NCBI GenBank assembly: GCA_046485285.1
Contig: JAWOHE010000034.1
Coordinates: forward strand, 1-24,790
Direction: 5' to 3'
DNA: 24,790 nucleotides
Source of the DNA: a bacterium
Lineage (GTDB): Bacteria > Hydrothermota > Tepidihabitantia > Tepidihabitantales > Tepidihabitantaceae
In this document: positions 1 through 24,790 of the stretch, in pieces
Position numbering within the stretch: position 1 is the first letter of the stretch
How the letters are laid out: each line of letters begins with the position of its first letter
Made by a program: the position numbers and the translations under genes
The notes under the pieces: model-generated
Told to the model about the DNA's origin: nothing
Database searches by the model: none
The model's input: the letters and a program-made list of their open reading frames with translations, nothing else

Positions 1-163
1 TTACTCCCCCAGTAACCCCGGGAGTAACCCCCGGAGTAACTACCCCAGTAACCCCCGGAGTAACCCCCGGAGTAACACCGGGAGTAACCCCGGGAGTTAC
101 TCCCGGAGTAACCCCCGGAGTTACTGGGGGAGTAATACCGGGTATGGGGGAGGGGGTAAATTC
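1..163. repeat. Quasi-palindromic tandem array of 12-bp units (consensus GTAACYCCSGGA, about 12 units at 1-143) plus G-rich terminus (144-163); truncated by window start
   Basis: Units in exact 12-bp register from 12: GTAACCCCGGGA, GTAACCCCCGGA, GTAACTACCCCA, GTAACCCCCGGA x2, GTAACACCGGGA, GTAACCCCGGGA, GTTACTCCCGGA, GTAACCCCCGGA, GTTACTGGGGGA, GTAATACCGGGT. Bases 1-16 are the exact reverse complement of 120-135. Confidence 0.95.
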
Positions 164-212
164 AGAGGTGAATGAAGTGCTGATTTTTCAACCGATTGTG
201 ACGATTTCGCGA

Positions 213-241
213 TTGACCGGGTCGTTAGTTCCTACTAACAT
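213..241 (+). promoter_or_regulatory. Sigma70-type promoter with an overlapping inverted repeat (candidate operator) for the XRE gene
   Basis: TTGACC (213-218), 17 bp, TAACAT (236-241), with ATG 5 nt downstream. Dyad GTTAGT-TCCT-ACTAAC at 224-239. Confidence 0.6.
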
Positions 242-246
242 AGGCT

Positions 247-570
247 ATGGATGGTAATGTGAGGGTGGCTGGCTTCAGACCGGGAGCGACGGTTGCGCCG
301 GGTGCGGCGTTACGCGGGTTGCGGCGGCGGGCCGGGCTGAGCCTGGTCGAACTGGCGCACCTGATGGGCCGGAAGCCTGGCTTCTACTCGCATCTCAGCC
401 GGCTTGAGCACGGCCGGGTGGGGCGCCCGACGCTGGGGCTGGTTGCCCATTGCCTGCGGGCCTGCCCGCGCGTTGCGCGCAGGCGGGCCTGCGGCGCGTC
501 GTTCGGGGAGCTTGCGCCGGTGCTGGACCGGCACGCCGGCGGTCGGTGCGGGAGAACCGGGTCCTCGTGA
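247..570 (+). CDS. XRE/Cro-family helix-turn-helix protein, possibly degenerate (C-terminus looks frameshifted or truncated)
   Basis: GAALRGLRRRAGLSLVELAHLMGR...HLSRLEHGRVGRPTLGLVAHCLRAC fits the HTH_3/HTH_31 pattern (LR.LR...GLS..ELA...G....lSRLE.G...P). Confidence 0.7.
   Translation: MDGNVRVAGFRPGATVAPGAALRGLRRRAGLSLVELAHLMGRKPGFYSHLSRLEHGRVGRPTLGLVAHCLRACPRVARRRACGASFGELAPVLDRHAGGRCGRTGSS
461..487. repeat. 27-bp palindromic in-frame insertion within the XRE gene
   Basis: CCTGCCCGCGCG-TTG-CGCGCAGGCGGG forms a 12-bp stem (1 mismatch, 1 G-T). GCGGGCCTGC is directly repeated at 456-465 and 483-492. Confidence 0.65.
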
Positions 571-776
571 CTGCGAGAGCCGGGCGCGGTGAACGGGGTA
601 ATCGGTTGAGTTGGAGAGGCGCGGGCGGGTTTCACGCCCGGCCGCGTGACGATTCGGCTTCAGGTTCCTCGGCCCGGCGGCAGCTAACAGGTGGGAGCGG
701 TGTGCCGGCTGCGAGCAGCGAGGGGTGCGAGGGCTGAGGCGATTGCCCGGCGCGGGGAGGCGGAGGGGCGCAGCGG

Positions 777-3016
777 CTAGAAGGTGCGGCCGATCTGGAA
801 GTGAGGTTCCCAGCGGCCGCCGCCCTCGCGGTCAAAGCCGTAGCCGAAGTCGAAGCCGAGGAGGCCGAGCATCGGGATTTCGATGCGGACGCCAAGGCCG
901 GCGCCGCGCTTGAGGTCGGAGAGGTTGATCTGTTCGAGCGTGTTCCAGGCGTTGCCGGCATCGGCGAAGGCGATGAAGGAGAGCTCGCGGCTGAGCCGGA
1001 GCTTGAGCTCGGTGGAGAAGAGCGCGAGCGCCTTGCCGCCGATGGCATAGCCGGCCTTGTACGGGCCGATGCTGCGGTCGCCGTAGCCGCGGACACCGTC
1101 GACGCCGGTGCCGCCGGCGTAGAAGCGCTCCGAGAGCGGGACCGCATCGGCGGAGGAGAAGCCATCGATGTAGCCGAGCCGGGTGCGGCCCATCAGCCCG
1201 AACTTCCAGAACAGCGGGAAGTACTGGGCGACGTCGAGAGTGTGGCGGTGGAAGCGGATGTCACCGAAGGAGGTGGCGACGGAGTAGGTGACGGCCGAGC
1301 CGGAGAGGGCGTTGAAAACGTAGTCGCGCGAGTCGCGGGTGAAGGTGATACTGGGAACGAAGGCGACCTTGTGGACGGTATCGCCGCGGACGTCGTAGGG
1401 GTTGTCTTCGCCCGGGTCGTAGCCGGAGCTGATCGAGGCGGGCGGGACAAAGGCGTCGGTGAGCCGGAGGCCGAGGTAAGCGCGGGTGTAGTCGAGGGGA
1501 AGGGGCCGGGAGAATGAGAGGCCGCCGCCGATCTCCTGGCGGTCGTAGTAGTCGTACTTGCGGGTGAGGTAGGCGATGTCCGCGCCGGCCGAGGTCGGCG
1601 TGTCGAAGAGCCAGGGTTCGGTGAAGCCGAGCGCGATGTTGGTGAGCTTGCCGCCCTTTTCGAGCTTGACGTTGGCGCGCTGGCCCCGACCGAAGAGGTT
1701 GGGTTGCTGGAGTTCGACGTAGCCGGTGAAGCCGTCCGGGCCGGAGTAGGTGACCCCGGCGCCGATGGTGCCGAAGAAGCTCTTTTCCTTGACCCGGTAG
1801 ACGAGGTCAATCGCGCCCGCGGTGTCGGCCCGGCGGTAGTCGAGCTTGACGTCCTCGAAGAAGCCGAGGTTGAAGATGTCGCGTTGACTGCGGATGACTT
1901 CGCTCCGGCGGAAGCGGTAGCCGGGCAGCGAGCTGATTTCGCGGCGGACGACCTTGTCCTGGGTCTGTTCGTTGCCTTCGACGGTGACGAGCCGGACGAG
2001 CGCGGGCTGGTTCTCGACGATCGCGTAGCTCAGGTCGACCGAGTCGCCCCGGACCTCCTCGGTCGGGATGACCGAGGCGTAGATGTAGCCTTCCTCGGAG
2101 TAGAGGCCGTAGATGCCGGCGAGGACGGCCTGGGTGTGGTCGGAGTTGTAGACCCTGCCTTCCTTGAGCCGGGCGGTGACCGCCTCGATGTCGGCGCGCG
2201 GGATGACCGAGTCGCCCGCGAAGGTGACCCGGCCGTAGCGGTACTGGCGGCCTTCCTCGACCTCGATGAAGATCGAGACCCAGCCCTTGTCAAAGCCCAT
2301 CCGGTAGTCGATGACCCGGGCGTCGAGGTGGCCGTTGCGCTTGTAGAAGTCGACGATGCGGTCGAGGTCCTTGATGAACTCGTCCTCGACGAGGCTGGCC
2401 TTGCGGTACCAGCGCTTCTCGCGGTTGGTGAGGTTGATTTCGATCTTCGGGTCCGGGAAGGCCTCGTTGCCGACGATTTCGATGCTTCGGATGCGGACCT
2501 GGTCGCCTTCCTCGATGTTGAAGGTGAGTTCGATGCGGCCGGCGGTGTCGGGCTGGCTATAGCCCGGCTCGATCTTGACGAGGAGGAAGCCCTTTTCCTT
2601 GTAAAGCTTGAGGACTTCCTGCCGCCAGTCGAAGACCTTGCGGTCGGTGAGAACCTCGCCGGGCTTGGCCTTGGCCCGGGACTCGAGGTCCTTGAGCTTG
2701 ACCCGGCGGAAGCCGGTGAAGAGGAGCCGGGCGATGCGCGGGTACTCGGCGACGCGGAAGGTGATGGTGACGCCGTCGGCGAGCATCGCGGTGTCGGCCG
2801 CGACCTGGCGGAACAGGCCGAGGCCGTGGATGCGGCGGATGGCGCCGGCAAGTTCGACCGAGAAGCCGGACGGGGTGAAGACCGCGCCGGTGGCGATGCC
2901 GGCGGTACGGACGACGAGCAGTGAGTCGGCGGTTTCGGTGCGGGCCTGGACCGCGAGAACAACCAGCTGGCCCGGCGGGGCAGGGGTTGTCGCGAGCAGG
3001 ACGAGGAGAAGGGCCG

Positions 3017-3020
<4 letters not shown>
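777..3020 (-). CDS. bamA: Outer membrane protein assembly factor BamA
   Basis: Signal-like N-terminus, five POTRA-like repeats (e.g. [29 protein letters not shown]), NLFGRGQ, VRGY motif in the barrel loop, C-terminal Phe. Confidence 0.95.
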
Positions 3021-21521: not shown

Positions 21522-23645
21522 ATGAAAGGCAAGCTCGTGCTGGTGTTCGGCCTCGTCTTCGCCATCGCGGCGCAGGCCGGCGTCTCCGACGCAGTCCCGT
21601 CTTCCGGGGGTGAGGTCGACTCGCCGTTCAGTATCGTCGTCGGCGGTACCGAAGACATCACCTGGGAGGCCAGGACAGCAGCGCCGGCCCCGGCCCGCTA
21701 CTGGAGCCCGGGTACCGGTGTCGTCCGCGACACCATCTACTTCCTCGGCGGCAGGCAGTCAAACGCCGCCTCGGTCCGGACGATATTCGCCTATGACATT
21801 GCAAATGACGTCTGGATTACCAGCGGTCTTCCCAACCTGCTGACGACCCGTCGGGCCGGTGCGGGGGGCCGGATCGGCAACAAGATCTATGTCGCCGGTG
21901 GGCGGGACTCGTCGAGCGTGACGCTCAACACCTGCCAGGAGTTCGACGTCGATACCAAAACCGTGACTGCCAAGGCGAATATGCCCCTAGGGTCCTGGGC
22001 TAACTGCGGCGCAGTCGCCGGCGGCAAGCTCTACGTCATCGGCAGTGAGAACTCGGTCGGCAATACCTACGAGTACGACCCGGCGGCCAACACCTGGGCG
22101 ACCAAGGCCACGCTGGCGCCCGGCCGCGGCTGGGCCGCGGCGGCCGGCGCCGACGGCAAGGTCTATGTCACGGGCGGCTCAAGCACCGGTTCCACCCTCA
22201 GCGACTGTTGGATGTACGACCCGGCGGCCAACACCTGGACCCAGAAGGCAAACATGCCCGGCCCGCGCATCTACCACAACATGGTCTCCTACAACGACGA
22301 GACCATCTACGTCCTCGGCGGCTCGGCCGACGGCGCGGTTGCCGCGGACCGGCTCGTCTACAAGTATGACATCGCGTCCAACACTTGGTCGACCGAGACA
22401 CAGATGATAACCGCGCGCGGGTGGAGCATGCCGAATGTGGTCGGCAACTCGATCTGGATCGCCTACGGCTCGAACTGCACGACGCCGACCTATCTCCTCA
22501 ACAACGAGGAAGGCATCCTTGCGGTGCCTTACGCCACCGATGTCGGCGTGCAGACGATAGTTGCCCCGCCGCCGTCGATGTTCCAGGGAACGGTTGCCCC
22601 GCGGGCCGAGATCAAGAACTTCGGGACCGACCCGCAGAGCGACATCCCGGTCTACTGCCGGATCGACTCGGCCGGGAGCAACGTCTACTCCGAGGACGTG
22701 ACCCATGCCGGCCCGCTCGACCCGGGCGCGACCGCCGAGGTCGTCTTCCCGAACTGGAGCTCGGGCCCGGAGGGCAATGTCTACCAGGTGACGTTCTTCA
22801 CCGACCTGAGCGGCGACGAAAATCCCAACAACGACACGCTGAGCCGGACGACGACGATCAGCGGCGCTCCGCCAGAAGACACGATCCATGTTGACGGACC
22901 GTACAGCAACAACGCGGTCGGGCTGACCGCAGGCGGTACGTTCTACACCGCGGCGCGGCTGACCCCGACGGTCGGCTGCAACGTCATCGCCCTGATCTTC
23001 TACCACCACGACCCGTCCCAGGACCAGTATGCCTTCGTCTGGGGGCAGAACACCTCGAGCAATCCGGGCCCAGTCGTCGAGTCGATACCGTACACCGGTG
23101 CCGACACGATGTGGATCCGCTGCAACCTGGCGGCTCCGTACCACATCAACGCGAACGAGGACGTCTGGGTCGGTCCGCGCTACACCCACGCCGCCGGTCA
23201 GTACCCGGGTGGCGTTGATGCCGGTCCGGCGGCTCCGCAGCGCGGCGGCTTCATCAACTACGATGGCTCCTGGACCGAACTGCGGCTGGTCGGTTTGAAC
23301 TTCAACTGGAACATCCGCGCGATCGTCTGGTACGACGGCGGCGTCGAGGAGCAGGTCCTCGAGCCGGCACGGTTCGAGTTCCTTGGTGCCGCGCCGATGC
23401 CGGTCCGCGACTTCGCCAACATCCGCTACTCGCTGAGCAAGGATGCCCCAGTTAACCTGAGCATCTACAACGCGAGCGGCAGCCGCGTCCGGACGCTGGT
23501 GGACGGGGTTGTCGAGCGCGGCGAGCGGACCGTGTCCTGGGACCGCCAGGACGACGGTGGCCGCCTCGTTGCGAACGGCACCTACTTCTACCGTCTGACC
23601 GTTGATGGCCGGACCGTTTCGGCTAAGTCGGTGGTGCTGAACTAG
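21522..23645 (+). CDS. Secreted Kelch-repeat beta-propeller protein with a CARDB/Ig-like domain and a C-terminal FlgD-Ig / T9SS type A-like sorting domain
   Basis: RBS AAGGAG. Signal peptide MKGKLVLVFGLVFAIAAQA. About six Kelch repeats (IYFLGG, IYVAGG, YDPAANTW), DVGVQTIVAP..IKNFG..DENPNNDTL, tail IRYSL..VNLSIYNASGSRVRTLVDG..WD..D..G..VANGTYFYRL. Confidence 0.9.
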   Translation: MKGKLVLVFGLVFAIAAQAGVSDAVPSSGGEVDSPFSIVVGGTEDITWEARTAAPAPARYWSPGTGVVRDTIYFLGGRQSNAASVRTIFAYDIANDVWITSGLPNLLTTRRAGAGGRIGNKIYVAGGRDSSSVTLNTCQEFDVDTKTVTAKANMPLGSWANCGAVAGGKLYVIGSENSVGNTYEYDPAANTWATKATLAPGRGWAAAAGADGKVYVTGGSSTGSTLSDCWMYDPAANTWTQKANMPGPRIYHNMVSYNDETIYVLGGSADGAVAADRLVYKYDIASNTWSTETQMITARGWSMPNVVGNSIWIAYGSNCTTPTYLLNNEEGILAVPYATDVGVQTIVAPPPSMFQGTVAPRAEIKNFGTDPQSDIPVYCRIDSAGSNVYSEDVTHAGPLDPGATAEVVFPNWSSGPEGNVYQVTFFTDLSGDENPNNDTLSRTTTISGAPPEDTIHVDGPYSNNAVGLTAGGTFYTAARLTPTVGCNVIALIFYHHDPSQDQYAFVWGQNTSSNPGPVVESIPYTGADTMWIRCNLAAPYHINANEDVWVGPRYTHAAGQYPGGVDAGPAAPQRGGFINYDGSWTELRLVGLNFNWNIRAIVWYDGGVEEQVLEPARFEFLGAAPMPVRDFANIRYSLSKDAPVNLSIYNASGSRVRTLVDGVVERGERTVSWDRQDDGGRLVANGTYFYRLTVDGRTVSAKSVVLN

Positions 23646-23667
23646 CGCCTTCGACTTTCGATTTCCT

Positions 23668-23700
23668 GCGGGCCGCCCGGAAGGGCGGCCCGCCTGTCTT
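23668..23700 (+). terminator. Rho-independent terminator-like hairpin
   Basis: Perfect 11-bp stem GCGGGCCGCCC-GGAA-GGGCGGCCCGC (23668-23693) just after the stop, with a weak U-tract CTGTCTT. Confidence 0.7.
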
Positions 23701-24142
23701 GAGGGCAGCCCCGCACGGCCGAGCGCCCTCCCGAGCCGGCTACGGACTGCCCGCCGAAGGCGGCCAGGGCGGCGGCCGCCGGGGGGGGGCGCGACGAAAC
23801 CCGGAAGGGCGGGACGGGCGAGTTCCACGTGGACAGCCGGCGTCGCGGTCGACAAAGCGGACGGGTTCGGTGATGTCCGGCAAACTGGCAACTGTGGGCG
23901 TCCGGGCCGGCCCGGCAAAGCATTTCGGGAGCCGCTACCGGGATGTGCCCCGGGTAACGCCCTCTGGTCGGTTCGGGTCCGGAGATGAGCATTCGGCTGG
24001 TTGTGGCAAGTGCCGGCAATCCGTGCAGTTGGGGCGACCGGACCGGTTCTGCCCCGATGAAGCTGCGGATCCGATGTTAGCCTTCTTCCACTGCGGCATC
24101 CGACAATGGGGGACCCGACGACAGGCGGGTGAGGGCGGGGGT

Positions 24143-24495
24143 GGGCTGTTGAGAAACCCAACTTTGCGCGTCATCGGGCGGACAGAATGCAGGCTGTGGA
24201 CGAGGTCGAGGCCGAGTAGTCGGCGGTAACCGTCCATCAGGCGGTACAGCGCAGCAACAACCGGCCCCAACCGGGGATTTCCGGCCAGCGCCGCAGCCAG
24301 GCGCTTGAGATTGATCACGGCTGCCGTCAGATACGCCTGAATCGCCACGTTCCAGCGCCCGCGCCGCACCGCCCGGGCCAGTCCATGTTGTACCTTTGCT
24401 CCGCCGTGCCGCCTCTCAACCCACCACCGGTGCCGCCGGTACAGTTCCTTCCGGGCTTCGTCCCAACCCCGGCTTCTCGCGCGCCGCGGCCGGGA
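24143..24495 (-). pseudogene. IS1182-like transposase C-terminal remnant with probable right end
   Basis: Frame reads RGWDEARKELYRRHRWWVERRHGGAKVQHGLARAVRRGRWNVAIQAYLTAAVINLKRL...GFLNSP, the DDE_Tnp_1_6-type C-terminal pattern. Candidate terminal IR GGGCTGTTGAGAAA at 24143-24156. The N-terminal part is absent. Confidence 0.8.
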
Positions 24496-24554
24496 GAATC
24501 CACCCCCACCCGCACTCCCGGTGTCACTCCCCCAGTAACTCCCGGAGTAACCTC
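24496..24554. repeat. Second, inverted copy of the 12-bp-unit element, interrupted by IS3
   Basis: 24496-24539 matches the reverse complement of 120-163 at 36 of 44 positions without gaps. Units GTCACTCCCCCA, GTAACTCCCGGA, GTAACCTC... Confidence 0.85.
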
Positions 24555-24790
24555 TGGAGTGTCCCCGGTCTGATGGACAGACGGATTGGTGTCTGTAAGG
24601 TCAGATTGGAGGTAACACGTGAGTACGGAGAAACAGCAGCGCAAGGTCTACACGCGTGAGTTCAAGATCGAAGCGGTCCGACTGACGACCGAGGGCGGCC
24701 TGTCGGTCGCCCAGGCAGCGCGGGATCTGGGTCTCAATGAGAACACGCTGCACAACTGGCGGCGGCAGTTCCGGCAGTGGGGCGCGCCGC
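24555..24790 (+). mobile_element. IS3-family insertion sequence, left end (truncated by window end)
   Basis: IRL-like TGGAGTGTCCCCGGTCTGATGGACA (5'-TG) about 65 bp upstream of an OrfA gene. The exact boundary is inferred. Confidence 0.8.
24619..24790 (+). CDS. IS3-family transposase OrfA (HTH_Tnp_1), partial
   Basis: GGAGG at 24608-24612, GTG start. Reads MSTEKQQRKVYTREFKIEAVRLTTEGGLSVAQAARDLGLNENTLHNWRRQF. Not in the ORF track because it runs off the window end. Confidence 0.92.
   Translation, partial: MSTEKQQRKVYTREFKIEAVRLTTEGGLSVAQAARDLGLNENTLHNWRRQFRQWGAP

Follow-up and report, generated by a model that had tools for sequence, protein, structure and literature searches.

A dispersed, capped array of 12-bp units upstream of XRE-type regulator genes in an uncultivated WOR-3 bacterium

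The BrickBuilt MITE of Porphyromonas gingivalis, which occurs in 19 copies and is built from a 23-nt unit (PMC4596501), is one of the described systems closest to the element reported here. The two are alike in having a leader, a spacer-less tandem repeat, a tail and small inverted-repeat ends, and also in being multicopy, always intergenic, narrow in host range and equipped with promoter elements (PMC4596501). The REP, BIME and REPIN sequences, 20–40-bp hairpins with a GTAG or CGTC tag and a RAYT transposase (PMC3733652, PMC3116915), share with our element the extragenic palindromic repeats, the many copies, the alternating unit orientation and the strong hairpins. In the tubC–TubR system the gene for a small DNA-binding protein of the HTH type is preceded by blocks of short direct repeats, at its autoregulated promoter, and TubR extends along these repeats to build a curved higher-order complex (PMC6009700). 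The location of an array directly upstream of a small DNA-binding protein gene is common to tubC–TubR, parC–ParR and our element. The arrays of parC–ParR and of pBtoxis, the latter with a 12-bp tubC unit, are comparable centromere arrays. The element was studied in a 24,790-nt stretch of DNA, referred to as the window, from a metagenome-assembled genome of an uncultivated WOR-3 bacterium (2.34 Mb, 102 contigs, 88% complete). In a literature search of limited coverage no description of a capped 12-bp array element was found.

The first-pass annotation had described positions 1–163 as a 12-bp periodic, self-complementary array, and both properties were reproduced. Tandem Repeats Finder (TRF) gave a period of 12 at 11–121 (9.2 copies, 82% matches, score 152), and the reverse complement of 120–135 is identical to bases 1–16. 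In the window the motif GTWACNCCSGG was counted 18 times (16 in 12–124 and 2 in 24535–24551), while 0.22 ± 0.54 occurrences are expected by chance and none of 100 dinucleotide shuffles reached 18. Like CRISPR loci, the array consists of regularly spaced short palindromic repeats beside a conserved flank; however, its units abut without spacers, and the earlier statement that it is not a CRISPR holds. The features of the window are as follows:

1..139, + strand: T1 array of 12-bp units, consensus AGTWACNCCSGG, about 11.6 units (TRF, motif count)
140..163, + strand: capB, G-rich terminal cap GGGTATGGGGGAGGGGGTAAATTC (35 genome matches at ≤1 mismatch, reversed control 0)
164..246, + strand: conserved tail with a sigma-70-like promoter and a palindrome (conserved in T1–T4 copies)
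247..570, + strand: XRE-family HTH gene, truncated or decayed, 107 aa (Pfam HTH_31, E 9.6e-8)
600..720, + strand: right-end module (AATCGGTTGAGTTG ... GGCGGCAGCTAACAGG) (BLAST and alignment of 22 copies)
777..3020, − strand: bamA (Omp85/POTRA), flanking gene, convergent on the element and outside it (Pfam Omp85 3.1e-50, POTRA 6.3e-40)
24478..24554, + strand: left end of a second T1 module, with about 25 nt of shared upstream sequence, capA (..CCACCCCCACCCGCACTCCC..) and about 4 units (BLAST)
24555..24790, + strand: left end of an IS3-family insertion sequence, orfA from 24619 (100% identity to contig C50; Pfam)

The left part of the T1 array and its capA are missing from the window because the contig, and with it the window, starts at base 1. 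In the closest copy, on contig C39 (94.9% identity over 505 nt), the array runs on to capA, with a capA–capB distance of 227 nt. Window 1–163 is the right-hand part of a non-coding capped module composed of a C-rich capA, 12-bp units and a G-rich capB. An imperfect terminal inverted repeat bounds the module, and its right arm consists of capB and the final array units. The tail contains a promoter-like site TTGACC-17-TAACAT at 213–241 (one found versus 0.1 expected), and the palindrome GTTAGT-tcct-ACTAAC at 224–239, which overlaps the −10 hexamer, is the presumed operator of the HTH gene promoter; relatives have paralogue-specific palindromes at the equivalent position. Homology between copies spans the window from base 1 to about 700, stopping at ~690–720, while synteny with all four sister genomes begins precisely at base 775. 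The right-end module also terminates another kind of array element elsewhere in the genome (contexts on C7, C84 and C10).

The end of the window array had been reported to recur, inverted, 24 kb away. The comparison of 120–163 with the reverse complement of 24496–24539 gave the same 36 of 44 identical positions without gaps, with the likeness ending after AATTC/GATTC, and a repeat search extended the pair to 99–163 and 24496–24560 (65 nt, 78%). The similarity thus stands, but the two ends are not the same one: 24496–24554 belongs to a different copy, of which it is the opposite cap, capA, in diverged form. BLAST matched 24478–24554 to contigs C93, C58, C55, C95, C21, C35, C7 and C91 at 85–96% identity, with matches starting at 24478–24504 and ending at 24551–24552. 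From there, 24555–24744 is 100% identical to C50:190–1, and 24619–24789 matches Pfam HTH_Tnp_1 (E 2e-15), so that the second T1 module is truncated at 24555 by an IS3-family insertion. A mirror cap had also been predicted to the left of the window array. An exact capB is present at both ends in two loci (C95:192–404 and C65:3398–3466), but elsewhere the usual left end of the module is the diverged capA (..CCACCCGCACTCC..).

The genome-wide search revealed many more copies with the common terminus. The capB sequence was found at 35 sites in this genome (≤1 mismatch; reversed-pattern control 0), or 37 when two mismatches were allowed, and at 22, 3, 0 and 0 sites in four sister species; the proposal of a discrete dispersed element with defined termini and an internal 12-bp period, as opposed to local slippage, is borne out by these counts. 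Period-12 arrays of 90 bp or more number 57 and fall into unit types T1 (16), T2 (9), T3 (4) and T4 (28), and one and the same capB and tail sequence stands behind all four types. The REP tag GTAG is present only within T2 units. The module between the caps, 60–251 nt in size, is non-coding and multicopy, and the amplified unit contains in addition a gene or pseudogene: the tail is followed by an XRE-HTH gene or its remains in 31 of the 35 tail-bearing copies listed. At the ≤2-mismatch threshold, 33 of the 37 capB sites run into the conserved tail, either alone or joined to the XRE-HTH gene or its pseudogene, which does not agree with a free-standing MITE; the left flanks vary (spacer following a T9SS C-terminal-domain (CTD) gene end, another shared module, insertion sequence or unique sequence). 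Outside this pattern are 26 of the 28 T4 arrays, which have neither capB nor an adjacent HTH gene. The array-plus-gene cassette is a dispersed repeat in this genus, with dozens of mostly decayed copies in this genome, the window copy among them; only two of the 35 capB sites have a gene that is matched over almost all of the query.

In a public collection of genome contigs the array carriers were WOR-3-type MAGs only, and in a metagenome contig collection a first pattern gave 0 matches and a broader one 2 contigs. Motif matches in a Desulfobacteraceae MAG, two Alphaproteobacteria MAGs and a rumen MAG were rejected, as they lacked 12-bp arrays; those of the Desulfobacteraceae and Alphaproteobacteria MAGs lay inside unrelated CCCCTCCCC/GGGGAGGGG hairpins. 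The window array is located at a contig end, many copies lie ~190–220 nt from contig ends, and many contigs of the MAG end at or beside arrays, as would be expected if the repeats were an assembly artefact or the product of simple local slippage. The chance of this is practically negligible, because complete copies are found inside long contigs with unique flanks (e.g., C19, C55, C35 and C101), sister genomes that were assembled independently contain the element, as do metagenome contigs, and the contig breaks are explained by IS256-like copies adjoining the arrays.

The geometry of the module is more constant than its sequence. The capA–capB distance was ≡ 11 mod 12 in 20 of 23 complete copies of this genome; it was 215 nt in nine copies spanning T1, T2 and T3, and 227 nt in five, and in the sister genome G004 12 of 13 complete arrays had the 215-nt distance. 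T1 lengths range over 60–251 nt in steps of 12, and of the three copies outside the common register two deviate by one base. The first 56 nt and the reverse complement of the last 56 nt align in one register in all 23 copies, with an identity of 0.46–0.82 compared to ~0.1–0.5 off register. In the orthologous pair L106/L108 the cap and promoter are ~85% identical and the array ~35–40% (by eye on the alignment), while an AA..C signature recurs every 12 columns. These data suggest that selection appears to hold the geometry, which is the 12-bp phase, about 18 units and the cap position, while the unit sequence turns over.

A regular 12-bp period could also be produced by a protein-coding tetrapeptide repeat, (VTPG)n, in which the self-complementarity would be a by-product of GTNAC and CCNGG both being palindromes. 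Frame +3 of window 3–257 is indeed open and reads (VTPG)n, and, counted from capB, one frame stays free of stops through most of the arrays in each of the four types. However, the GC3 of this frame is 0.40 (214 T1 units) versus 0.87–0.92 in three window genes, position 3 of the T1 unit is only ever A or T, and valine is encoded by GTA or GTT in 217 of 218 array codons versus 19 of 191 in genes, with GTC or GTG accounting for 1 of 218 and 172 of 191, respectively. No conserved start codon or N-terminus was found for the array frame; in the intact locus on C4 it is stopped inside the array, 33 nt before capB, and the distance to the downstream stop varies between 21 and 342 nt. Moreover, 3 of 23 copies are off register, the peptides implied by the four types (VTPG, TVPP, RVTG and GAAP) are unlike each other, and four relatives (L106, L108, L113 and L122) have stops in all three sense frames. 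The coding explanation was rejected on codon usage, the missing start and these stops, and we consider it highly improbable. The arrays also fall outside conserved coding genes, the HTH ORF included, which settles a concern raised with the initial description.

The strand that carries the array has a marked potential to fold, as seen for C93:440–720, where −82.4 kcal/mol was predicted versus −43.9 ± 3.6 for shuffled sequences (z −10.9), and the z values were −3.8 to −9.2 for T1 and −7.1 to −8.1 for T2. Such folds would be consistent with a role at the RNA level, in which the array would be transcribed, through read-through from the upstream gene or by a promoter of its own, into a structured or C-rich RNA; this RNA might serve, for instance, for Rho loading or insulation ahead of the regulator promoter, as a stabilizer of mRNA ends, or together with the tail as a small RNA. 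Most arrays are oriented like the upstream T9SS cargo gene, an array lies within 330 nt after 9 of 111 CTD-like gene ends, with capA ~70 nt past the stop in 7 of the 9, the sense strand is C-rich (C/(C+G) 0.71–0.77 in T2), and short tails are bracketed by pairable GAAATTCGG ... CCGAAATTCG, which enclose a hairpin of variable sequence. We nevertheless regard this role as quite unlikely, as the T3 and T4 arrays lack the C skew and are no more structured than shuffles (z −1.7 to −4.8), Rfam gave no family at threshold in window 1–1200, only sub-threshold matches to hairpin-like miRNAs, and no terminator-like site was found in 1–900. The reading of the GGA motifs as a CsrA sponge was rejected, since no CsrA family match was found in the 88%-complete genome and the sponge would therefore lack its partner.

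The same surface-protein neighborhood raises the question of recombination. Neisseria pilin variation involves conserved 3′ repeats and a G4 motif, and by analogy the conserved T9SS C-terminal-domain ends, with the G-run caps and palindromic arrays downstream, could help cargo genes to swap their 3′ ends or flanks. In eight cargo genes with dissimilar upstream parts, the final ~90–340 nt are shared, as is a ~70-nt spacer, after which comes an array or, at the array position, an insertion sequence; four G-runs are present in each cap, on the strand ending at that point, and the arrays are located at synteny breaks with each of the four sister genomes. On the other hand, a cargo-type gene precedes only 9 of the 57 arrays, those of genus g10 follow unrelated genes (e.g., hypB-like), and T3 arrays have no G-runs, which makes such a device very unlikely.

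The HTH genes were compared across the family. The window ORF at 247–570 scored 32.7 bits with Pfam HTH_31 (cut-off 27), and its 107 aa match residues 7–91 of the intact 291-aa protein P0003 at 67% identity, diverging after that; intact relatives are 250–400 aa long. Homologs were found in all 43 genomes of the family. This genome has 22 HTH matches, of which, among the 19 listed, 2 are near the full query length, and therefore arrays persist without a working neighbor. A period-12 array was located upstream of the HTH gene in 14 of 29 loci examined (3/4 in genus g1, 10/11 in g10 and 1/2 in g14), versus 2 of 29 in the gene-body control and 270 of 38,838 windows in the genome background; the other 15 loci had no upstream array at the threshold used, and 9 of 11 sampled genera include such loci. 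Twelve loci from 5 genera have a G-rich cap between −143 and −164. The HTH genes of a second genus have upstream 12-bp arrays of unrelated unit sequence and without dyad symmetry, which also speaks against a free-standing MITE. Thus, intact versions of the gene are conserved family-wide, and 12-bp arrays precede it in at least two genera.

The modeled HTH domain of an intact copy resembles ClgR, C-proteins and other XRE regulators, with weak E-values from 2.4e-3; the structure search gave matches for the HTH domain only, and a protein atlas, PADLOC and NCBIfam returned generic HTH matches only. The intact copies are followed by heterodisulfide-reductase-like genes (C19) and by mgtE (C4). Three further candidates were rejected. 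The array as a row of operator half-sites was not borne out, as 5-mers of the half-sites were not enriched in cognate arrays (diagonal mean 0.87, off-diagonal 0.63, 15 loci). An AT-hook-like RGRP motif as the reader of the array was present in 1 of 14 array loci and 3 of 15 others (Fisher p 0.6), and Pfam AT_hook had no match in the regulator even at E 10. A small upstream ORF from a conserved GTGAAT was dismissed because it meets an early stop in the intact loci on C19 and C4 (by eye).

The module could instead be a purely selfish, non-autonomous element of the MITE, BIME or REPIN type, in which capA, array and capB were moved in trans by a transposase that recognizes the G-rich caps or the hairpin, with the HTH linkage being accidental and the period without function. 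The terminal inverted repeats in one register in 23 of 23 copies, the hairpin potential of T1 and T2, the high copy number with a majority of decayed gene copies, the patchy distribution of capB in the genus (35, 22, 3, 0 and 0 sites) and the two loci with capB at both ends (C95 and C65) all fit this idea, and BrickBuilt provides a published analogue with an internal minisatellite (PMC4596501). The only Y1_Tnp (IS200/RAYT-like) gene of the genome (C44:28803–29132, E 2.4e-13) ends 45 nt before a 4-unit array, which is located on its 3′ side only. This gene is, however, disrupted by a duplication, and the Y1_Tnp genes of the sister genomes G003, G004, G002 and G001 are flanked by inverted repeats of their own and not by arrays, so that RAYT as the mobilizer was rejected as weak. 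No insertion sequence was seen to share the ends of the module, and those of the IS256-like copies are unlike the caps. A target-site duplication was not observed either, since the sequence to the right of capB is nearly always the conserved tail, and no direct repeat of that flank was seen. A clean empty site was not found either, in the window, C55, C35, C95 or five reverse tests, the sister genomes being ~75–85% identical and rearranged at every locus. Target duplications, a cognate transposase and an empty site were not recovered in this 88%-complete genome and the four sister genomes. A fixed 215-nt length and a 12-bp phase kept over unit types and species are not expected of a neutral minisatellite, and arrays without dyad symmetry precede homologous genes in another genus. 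We consider a purely selfish origin unlikely.

The IS3, IS200-like and a fourth insertion sequence merely adjoin arrays in this 88%-complete genome of 102 contigs, and the arrays are strong insertion hot spots, in the way that REPs are preferred targets of insertion sequences.

The explanation that we favor, and hold to be somewhat probable, is an ancestral cis-acting array of an XRE regulator family that was amplified in this genome as a cassette and has a role at the DNA level. The order of this cassette is array, cap, promoter with palindromic operator, XRE-type HTH gene and right-end module. It is possible, and we propose it tentatively, that the array is an architectural or protein-binding platform, which would be placed directly upstream of the self-regulated HTH promoter. 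What would be kept is the 12-bp phase, the total length, the phased A/T patches in a G+C-rich background and a constant spacing between the G-run cap and the gene, and not the unit sequence itself. Copies and array types may have been exchanged and amplified through recombination that pairs conserved caps and flanks of different copies, or alternatively through an enzyme acting in trans, while the unit number would shift by slippage in 12-nt steps. Some observations weigh against a role tied to the regulator: the array type is independent of the gene, with one tail and HTH type combined with T1, T2, T3 and T4 and a C4-type tail paired with T3 (C4) and T1 (C26); operator 5-mers and the RGRP motif are not associated with arrays; and the capless T4 arrays and the array-less HTH loci (15 of 29) remain outside it. 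A bolder version, rather unlikely at present, is that the phase-locked, length-conserved array and its G-run cap are a functional chromosomal cis-element co-evolving with WOR-3-specific XRE regulators, as a scaffold for protein polymerization in 12-bp steps or as intrinsically superhelical DNA. If the scaffold were real, it would work like a plasmid centromere or iteron array (tubC, parC), but on a chromosome with up to ~20 paralogous genes, with a free unit sequence, a kept phase and length, and amplification like that of a mobile element, and regulator-linked DNA architecture would thereby gain a new class.

For candidate phyla there are hardly any descriptions of dispersed non-coding repeats, which break the assemblies of such genomes, and the arrays described here accompany one regulator family across genera. 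If they are protein-binding or defined by shape, they offer a natural series of sequence-divergent, isomorphic arrays for testing periodic DNA upstream of promoters, and if they are selfish, a new type is added to the bacterial repeats, the capped minisatellite; under either reading they attract insertion sequences very strongly and mark points of rearrangement between species.

The pneumococcal BOX elements are like this element in their fixed head, variable number of internal units and fixed tail and in being intergenic and multicopy, while their units are ~45 bp long and they are not known to have a linked gene or length conservation. Compared with BrickBuilt, the units here are 12 bp long and dyad-symmetric, four unrelated types stand behind one cap, the 215-nt length and the phase are conserved over types and species, and the array is joined to an XRE regulator gene whose homologs in another genus also have arrays. 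The REP and BIME sequences differ in that the 12-bp units here form hairpins only from unit pairs or from the two ends, and in that the single Y1_Tnp gene has an array on one side and is not flanked in inverted orientation. In contrast to the partition loci, intact copies have no motor NTPase gene (ParA, ParM or TubZ) beside them, the neighbor in the window being bamA; the element is chromosomal and present in dozens of copies, its array type does not co-vary with the protein, and operator words are not enriched in it.

The array at the start of the window is a tandem repeat with a period of 12 bp (TRF, 11-121, 9.2 copies), and, as the first-pass annotation had noted, it is self-complementary, the reverse complement of 120-135 being identical to bases 1-16. 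Because the window begins at the start of contig C1 of this genome (G000; 2.34 Mb in 102 contigs), the array is truncated by the assembly. The motif GTWACNCCSGG, which had been proposed for scanning, occurs 18 times in the window versus 0.22 expected, and 18 was reached by 0 of 100 shuffles. The copies are located at unique loci, and the module consists of a C-rich left end, 12-bp units of one of four types and a G-rich right end (window 140-163):

capA, left end of the module, oriented as window 1-720: core ..CCACCCGCACTCC..
capB, right end of the module: GGGKATRGGGGAGGGGGKAAAT
T1 unit, the type of the window array: AGTWACNCCSGG
T2 unit: TACSGTWCCCCC
T3 unit: GGTGACCGGCCG
T4 unit: GGAGCGGCCCCG

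A genome-wide scan showed that the same capB terminates all four unit types, and further copies with this terminus do exist, 35 sites in all having at most one mismatch, versus 0 for the reversed control pattern. Merging of TRF calls gave 57 arrays of period 12 that measure 90 bp or more (T1 16, T2 9, T3 4 and T4 28); 26 of the 28 T4 arrays were without capB, and 10 had a different cap. The capB word was also seen in a Desulfobacteraceae MAG and two Alphaproteobacteria MAGs (L053, L055, L058, L060, L062), where it sits within CCCCTCCCC...GGGGAGGGG hairpin repeats that have no 12-bp arrays; such G-run caps may be a repeat motif of wide occurrence.

The similarity between 120-163 and the reverse complement of 24496-24539 (36 of 44 nt identical, ungapped, ending after AATTC/GATTC) is real, and a repeat search of the window extended it to 65 nt at 78%. 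Its interpretation as the same end in inverted orientation did not hold, as 24496-24554 is the capA of another copy. The 44-bp shared end is the imperfect terminal inverted repeat of the module, because the first 56 nt and the reverse complement of the last 56 nt had one common best register in 23 of 23 complete copies. The identity of these ends was 0.68-0.82 for T1 (0.50 in the 60-nt copy on C21), 0.59-0.71 for T2, 0.46-0.59 for T3 and 0.73 for T4. The exact mirror of capB predicted on the left was present in two loci only (C95:192-404 and C65:3398-3466).

The conserved property of the arrays is their geometry. In 20 of 23 copies the capA-capB distance equals 11 modulo 12. Nine copies across T1, T2 and T3 measure 215 nt and five (T1 and T4) 227 nt; T1 lengths otherwise range from 60 to 251 nt in 12-nt steps. 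Of the 13 complete arrays in the sister genome G004, 12 also measure 215 nt, despite units that have diverged among themselves. Single-strand folds of T1 and T2 were far below shuffles (z -3.8 to -10.9) and those of T3 and T4 weakly so (z -1.7 to -4.8), with the caps pairing with each other in most minimum-energy structures.

Frame +3 of the window array reads (VTPG)n. Any run coding for VTPG would be self-complementary in any case, GTNAC and CCNGG both being palindromic, and the coding alternative was therefore tested explicitly. Among 214 units from 18 T1 arrays, GC3 in this frame was 0.40, versus 0.87-0.92 in bamA, clpB and the Kelch gene; Val was encoded by GTA/GTT in 217 of 218 cases versus 19 of 191 in the same three genes, and Gly by GGA in 138 of 167 versus 6 of 209. 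Within GTWAC, positions 1, 2 and 4 do not vary, and G or C never stands at position 3. The frame that stays open through most arrays has no conserved start or upstream sequence; the intact locus on C4 has a stop in it 33 nt before capB, and the downstream stop lies at a variable distance (21-342 nt). The implied peptides differ in character among the four unit types, and stops interrupt every one of the three sense frames in the arrays of the relatives L106, L108, L113 and L122. Hence, the possibility raised in the first-pass annotation, that the arrays are parts of protein-coding genes, was rejected on GC3, codon choice, stops and lack of a conserved start.

The homology between copies extends past base 163 and reaches approximately base 505, 583 or 690-720 of the window; the features along it and next to it are:

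213-241, sigma-70-like site in the tail, TTGACC-17-TAACAT, the sole such site in 1-900 (0.1 expected)
224-239, palindrome GTTAGT-tcct-ACTAAC, covering the -10 hexamer
247-570, ORF with an XRE-type HTH (HTH_31, 32.7 bits versus a cut-off of 27)
about 600-720, right-end module, which also terminates T4/T5-type elements elsewhere
777, stop codon of bamA, beyond the repeat

Synteny with all four sister genomes begins at base 775, and the neighbour there is different in each sister. The element is very probably the non-coding array module, with its caps, of an XRE cassette that has been amplified. The HTH ORF at 247-570 is a truncated derivative. The genome has 22 HTH matches, and among those listed only C19 (residues 1-291) and C4 (11-287) are near full length; each of the remaining 17 in the list spans 141 residues or fewer, and six of these contain stop codons. 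In the C-terminal part of the aligned regulators (A1, P0003-P0013) a basic motif is conserved, RGRPRKTR (RGRRRKTR in this genome's copies), which resembles an AT-hook and is confined to the closest relatives. Many copies in G004, G002 and G000 have a short tail without the gene (e.g. L009, L012, L017, L082, L092, L094, L096, C13, C33, C7:624). In these, capB is followed by GAAATTCGG, about 95 nt including a hairpin of variable sequence, and CCGAAATTCG at position 109-110, and the two bracketing words are able to pair. A second composite repeat was seen at C7:38650-39650, C84:42900-43900 and C10:11750-12750. Its left part has a T9SS gene end (seen in C7 and C84), a spacer and then a capA-like cap, its middle contains two T4 sub-arrays, each terminating in GGGGATATCCCC, and a spacer of about 230 nt, and its right part leads from capA through a degenerate fifth 12-bp array (GGCGCCCGGATG-like) to the right-end module of window 600-720.

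The association of arrays with this regulator family appears, from comparison of loci, to predate the genus. All 43 other genomes of the family hold homologues of the intact HTH protein (1-22 matches each); in the other four families of the order, 1 of 22 genomes does. Thirty loci were retrieved, best hits per genome only, 29 of them with upstream sequence, and an array was called when a 120-nt window no more than 650 nt upstream had a lag-12 autocorrelation of at least 0.5. Such periodicity was present upstream in 14 of 29 loci, while the same test was positive in 2 of 29 gene bodies and in 270 of 38,838 windows of this genome. The positive loci belong to the genera g1 (3 of 4), g10 (10 of 11) and g14 (1 of 2, borderline at 0.50); among best hits per genome from eight other genera, 0 of 12 loci reached the threshold. 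The g10 arrays (138-368 nt, outside the HTH ORF) have unrelated, non-palindromic units, e.g. GACAAACGAGCT, CAAAGCTCGNNN, GAAGTAGCNNNN and AAGACNNCNNNN. A GGGGAGG-like G-rich cap lies at -143 to -164 from the HTH match start in 12 loci of five genera, and about 70 nt ahead of the match every gene carries a promoter-like site that includes a palindrome particular to that gene. Between the orthologues L106 and L108, cap and promoter are about 85% identical and the array about 35-40% (estimated by eye on the alignment), with an AA..C signature kept every 12 columns.

The observations point to an element acting at the DNA level, in which phase, length and phased A/T patches would matter; next to an autoregulated promoter, it could serve as a platform that binds protein periodically, or its DNA could be intrinsically curved. 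This functional part is tentative, because several results weaken its simplest version, that the neighbouring regulator itself reads the array. Array type does not go with tail or gene type, one tail being found with T1-T4, and the C4-type tail being paired with T3 in C4 but with T1 in C26. Operator words are not enriched in the cognate arrays, the AT-hook-like motif does not track with arrays, T4 arrays mostly lack the HTH gene, and the neighbouring HTH genes in this genome are mostly dead.

The left contexts of 21 capA sites form a mosaic. Five have the conserved end of a T9SS C-terminal-domain gene followed by a spacer of about 70 nt, and the others a second shared module of about 110 nt, a T4-element spacer, an IS or unique DNA. 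Among GVYFVRRQ-subfamily cargo genes, 8 of 22 carry the 70-nt spacer or a variant, followed by an array in six and by an IS at that position in two. The 22 T9SS cargo gene ends (e.g. C55, C93, C95, C7, C84, C89) terminate in ...PGVYFVRRQDTGESSRLVL.. and share 80-93% nucleotide identity over their final 90-340 nt, the genes being dissimilar upstream. The window's Kelch-repeat protein (707 aa, 21522-23645), with a FlgD_ig/CHU_C-type T9SS C-terminal domain, is encoded by an ordinary cargo gene. Sites of capB are patchy within the genus (35, 22, 3, 0 and 0), and the element was not found in 56 other relatives searched; the named relatives of the genome's proteins and repeats are WOR-3 MAGs. No target duplication, cognate transposase or clean empty site was found in comparisons with four sister genomes and IS ends. 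Recombination or gene conversion, acting between conserved caps and flanks, is at least as compatible as transposition with the mosaic of left contexts and with the exchange of array types behind a single tail. At C69:26380-27234, where a contig ends, a T1 array is fused directly to the middle of an EF-Ts (tsf) gene; this most likely reflects chimeric assembly and not an insertion.

The arrays are a hot spot for insertion sequences:

IS256-family left ends: G000 contigs C94, C95, C96, C98, C39, C7, C11
IS256-family right ends: G000 contigs C87, C68, C63, C57, C85
Window 24555-24790: IS3-family left end, orfA start 24619, end identical to contig C50
G000:C44:28764-29506 (L063:1765-2507): IS200/RAYT-like Y1_Tnp gene, the only one in the genome

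The IS256-family element (Transposase_mut, E 1.6e-27) has nine readable left and six right ends, and 11 of these 15 fall in an array or a cap or no more than 35 nt away from one. Arrays, with margins of 75 nt included, occupy 0.81% of the genome. The binomial tail of 4e-20 was computed for 11 of 16 ends, the actual number being 15 and the ends of one insertion being non-independent; the enrichment stands. A 9-bp target duplication flanks it both in capB (GGAGGGGGT) and at a unique site (CGTTCGCCA), and it explains why many contig breaks lie about 190 nt from arrays. The IS3-family element is inserted behind the fourth unit of the T1 array at 24555, and a fourth IS touches arrays at C21, C33 and C11. 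The Y1_Tnp gene is disrupted by an internal duplication (EHYLLAAVRYVERNPVRARLAKRAWD is present twice), and its 3' inverted repeat adjoins a 4-unit T1 array. On the minus strand of 23650-24480 an open frame reads ...AIQAYLTAAVINLKRLAAALAG... and had no Pfam match; we take it to resemble the C-terminal end of an IS5/IS1182-type transposase, and it is probably a remnant between the Kelch/T9SS gene and capA.

No description of the array element was found in the literature searched. BIME/REP arrays and pneumococcal BOX elements are likewise modular, palindromic and intergenic. The nearest published system is the BrickBuilt MITE of P. gingivalis, with a leader, a 23-nt minisatellite, a tail and small inverted ends, which has 19 copies and carries promoters (PMC4596501). 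The layout of a repeat array ahead of its own HTH gene is shared with tubC-type centromere arrays, where tubC lies upstream of tubR and TubR spreads over it (PMC6009700). None of the four systems is known to unite several unrelated unit types under one cap, conservation of length and phase across species, dyad-symmetric 12-bp units and linkage to one regulator family. We class it as either a capped minisatellite repeat or a regulator-linked iteron-like array.
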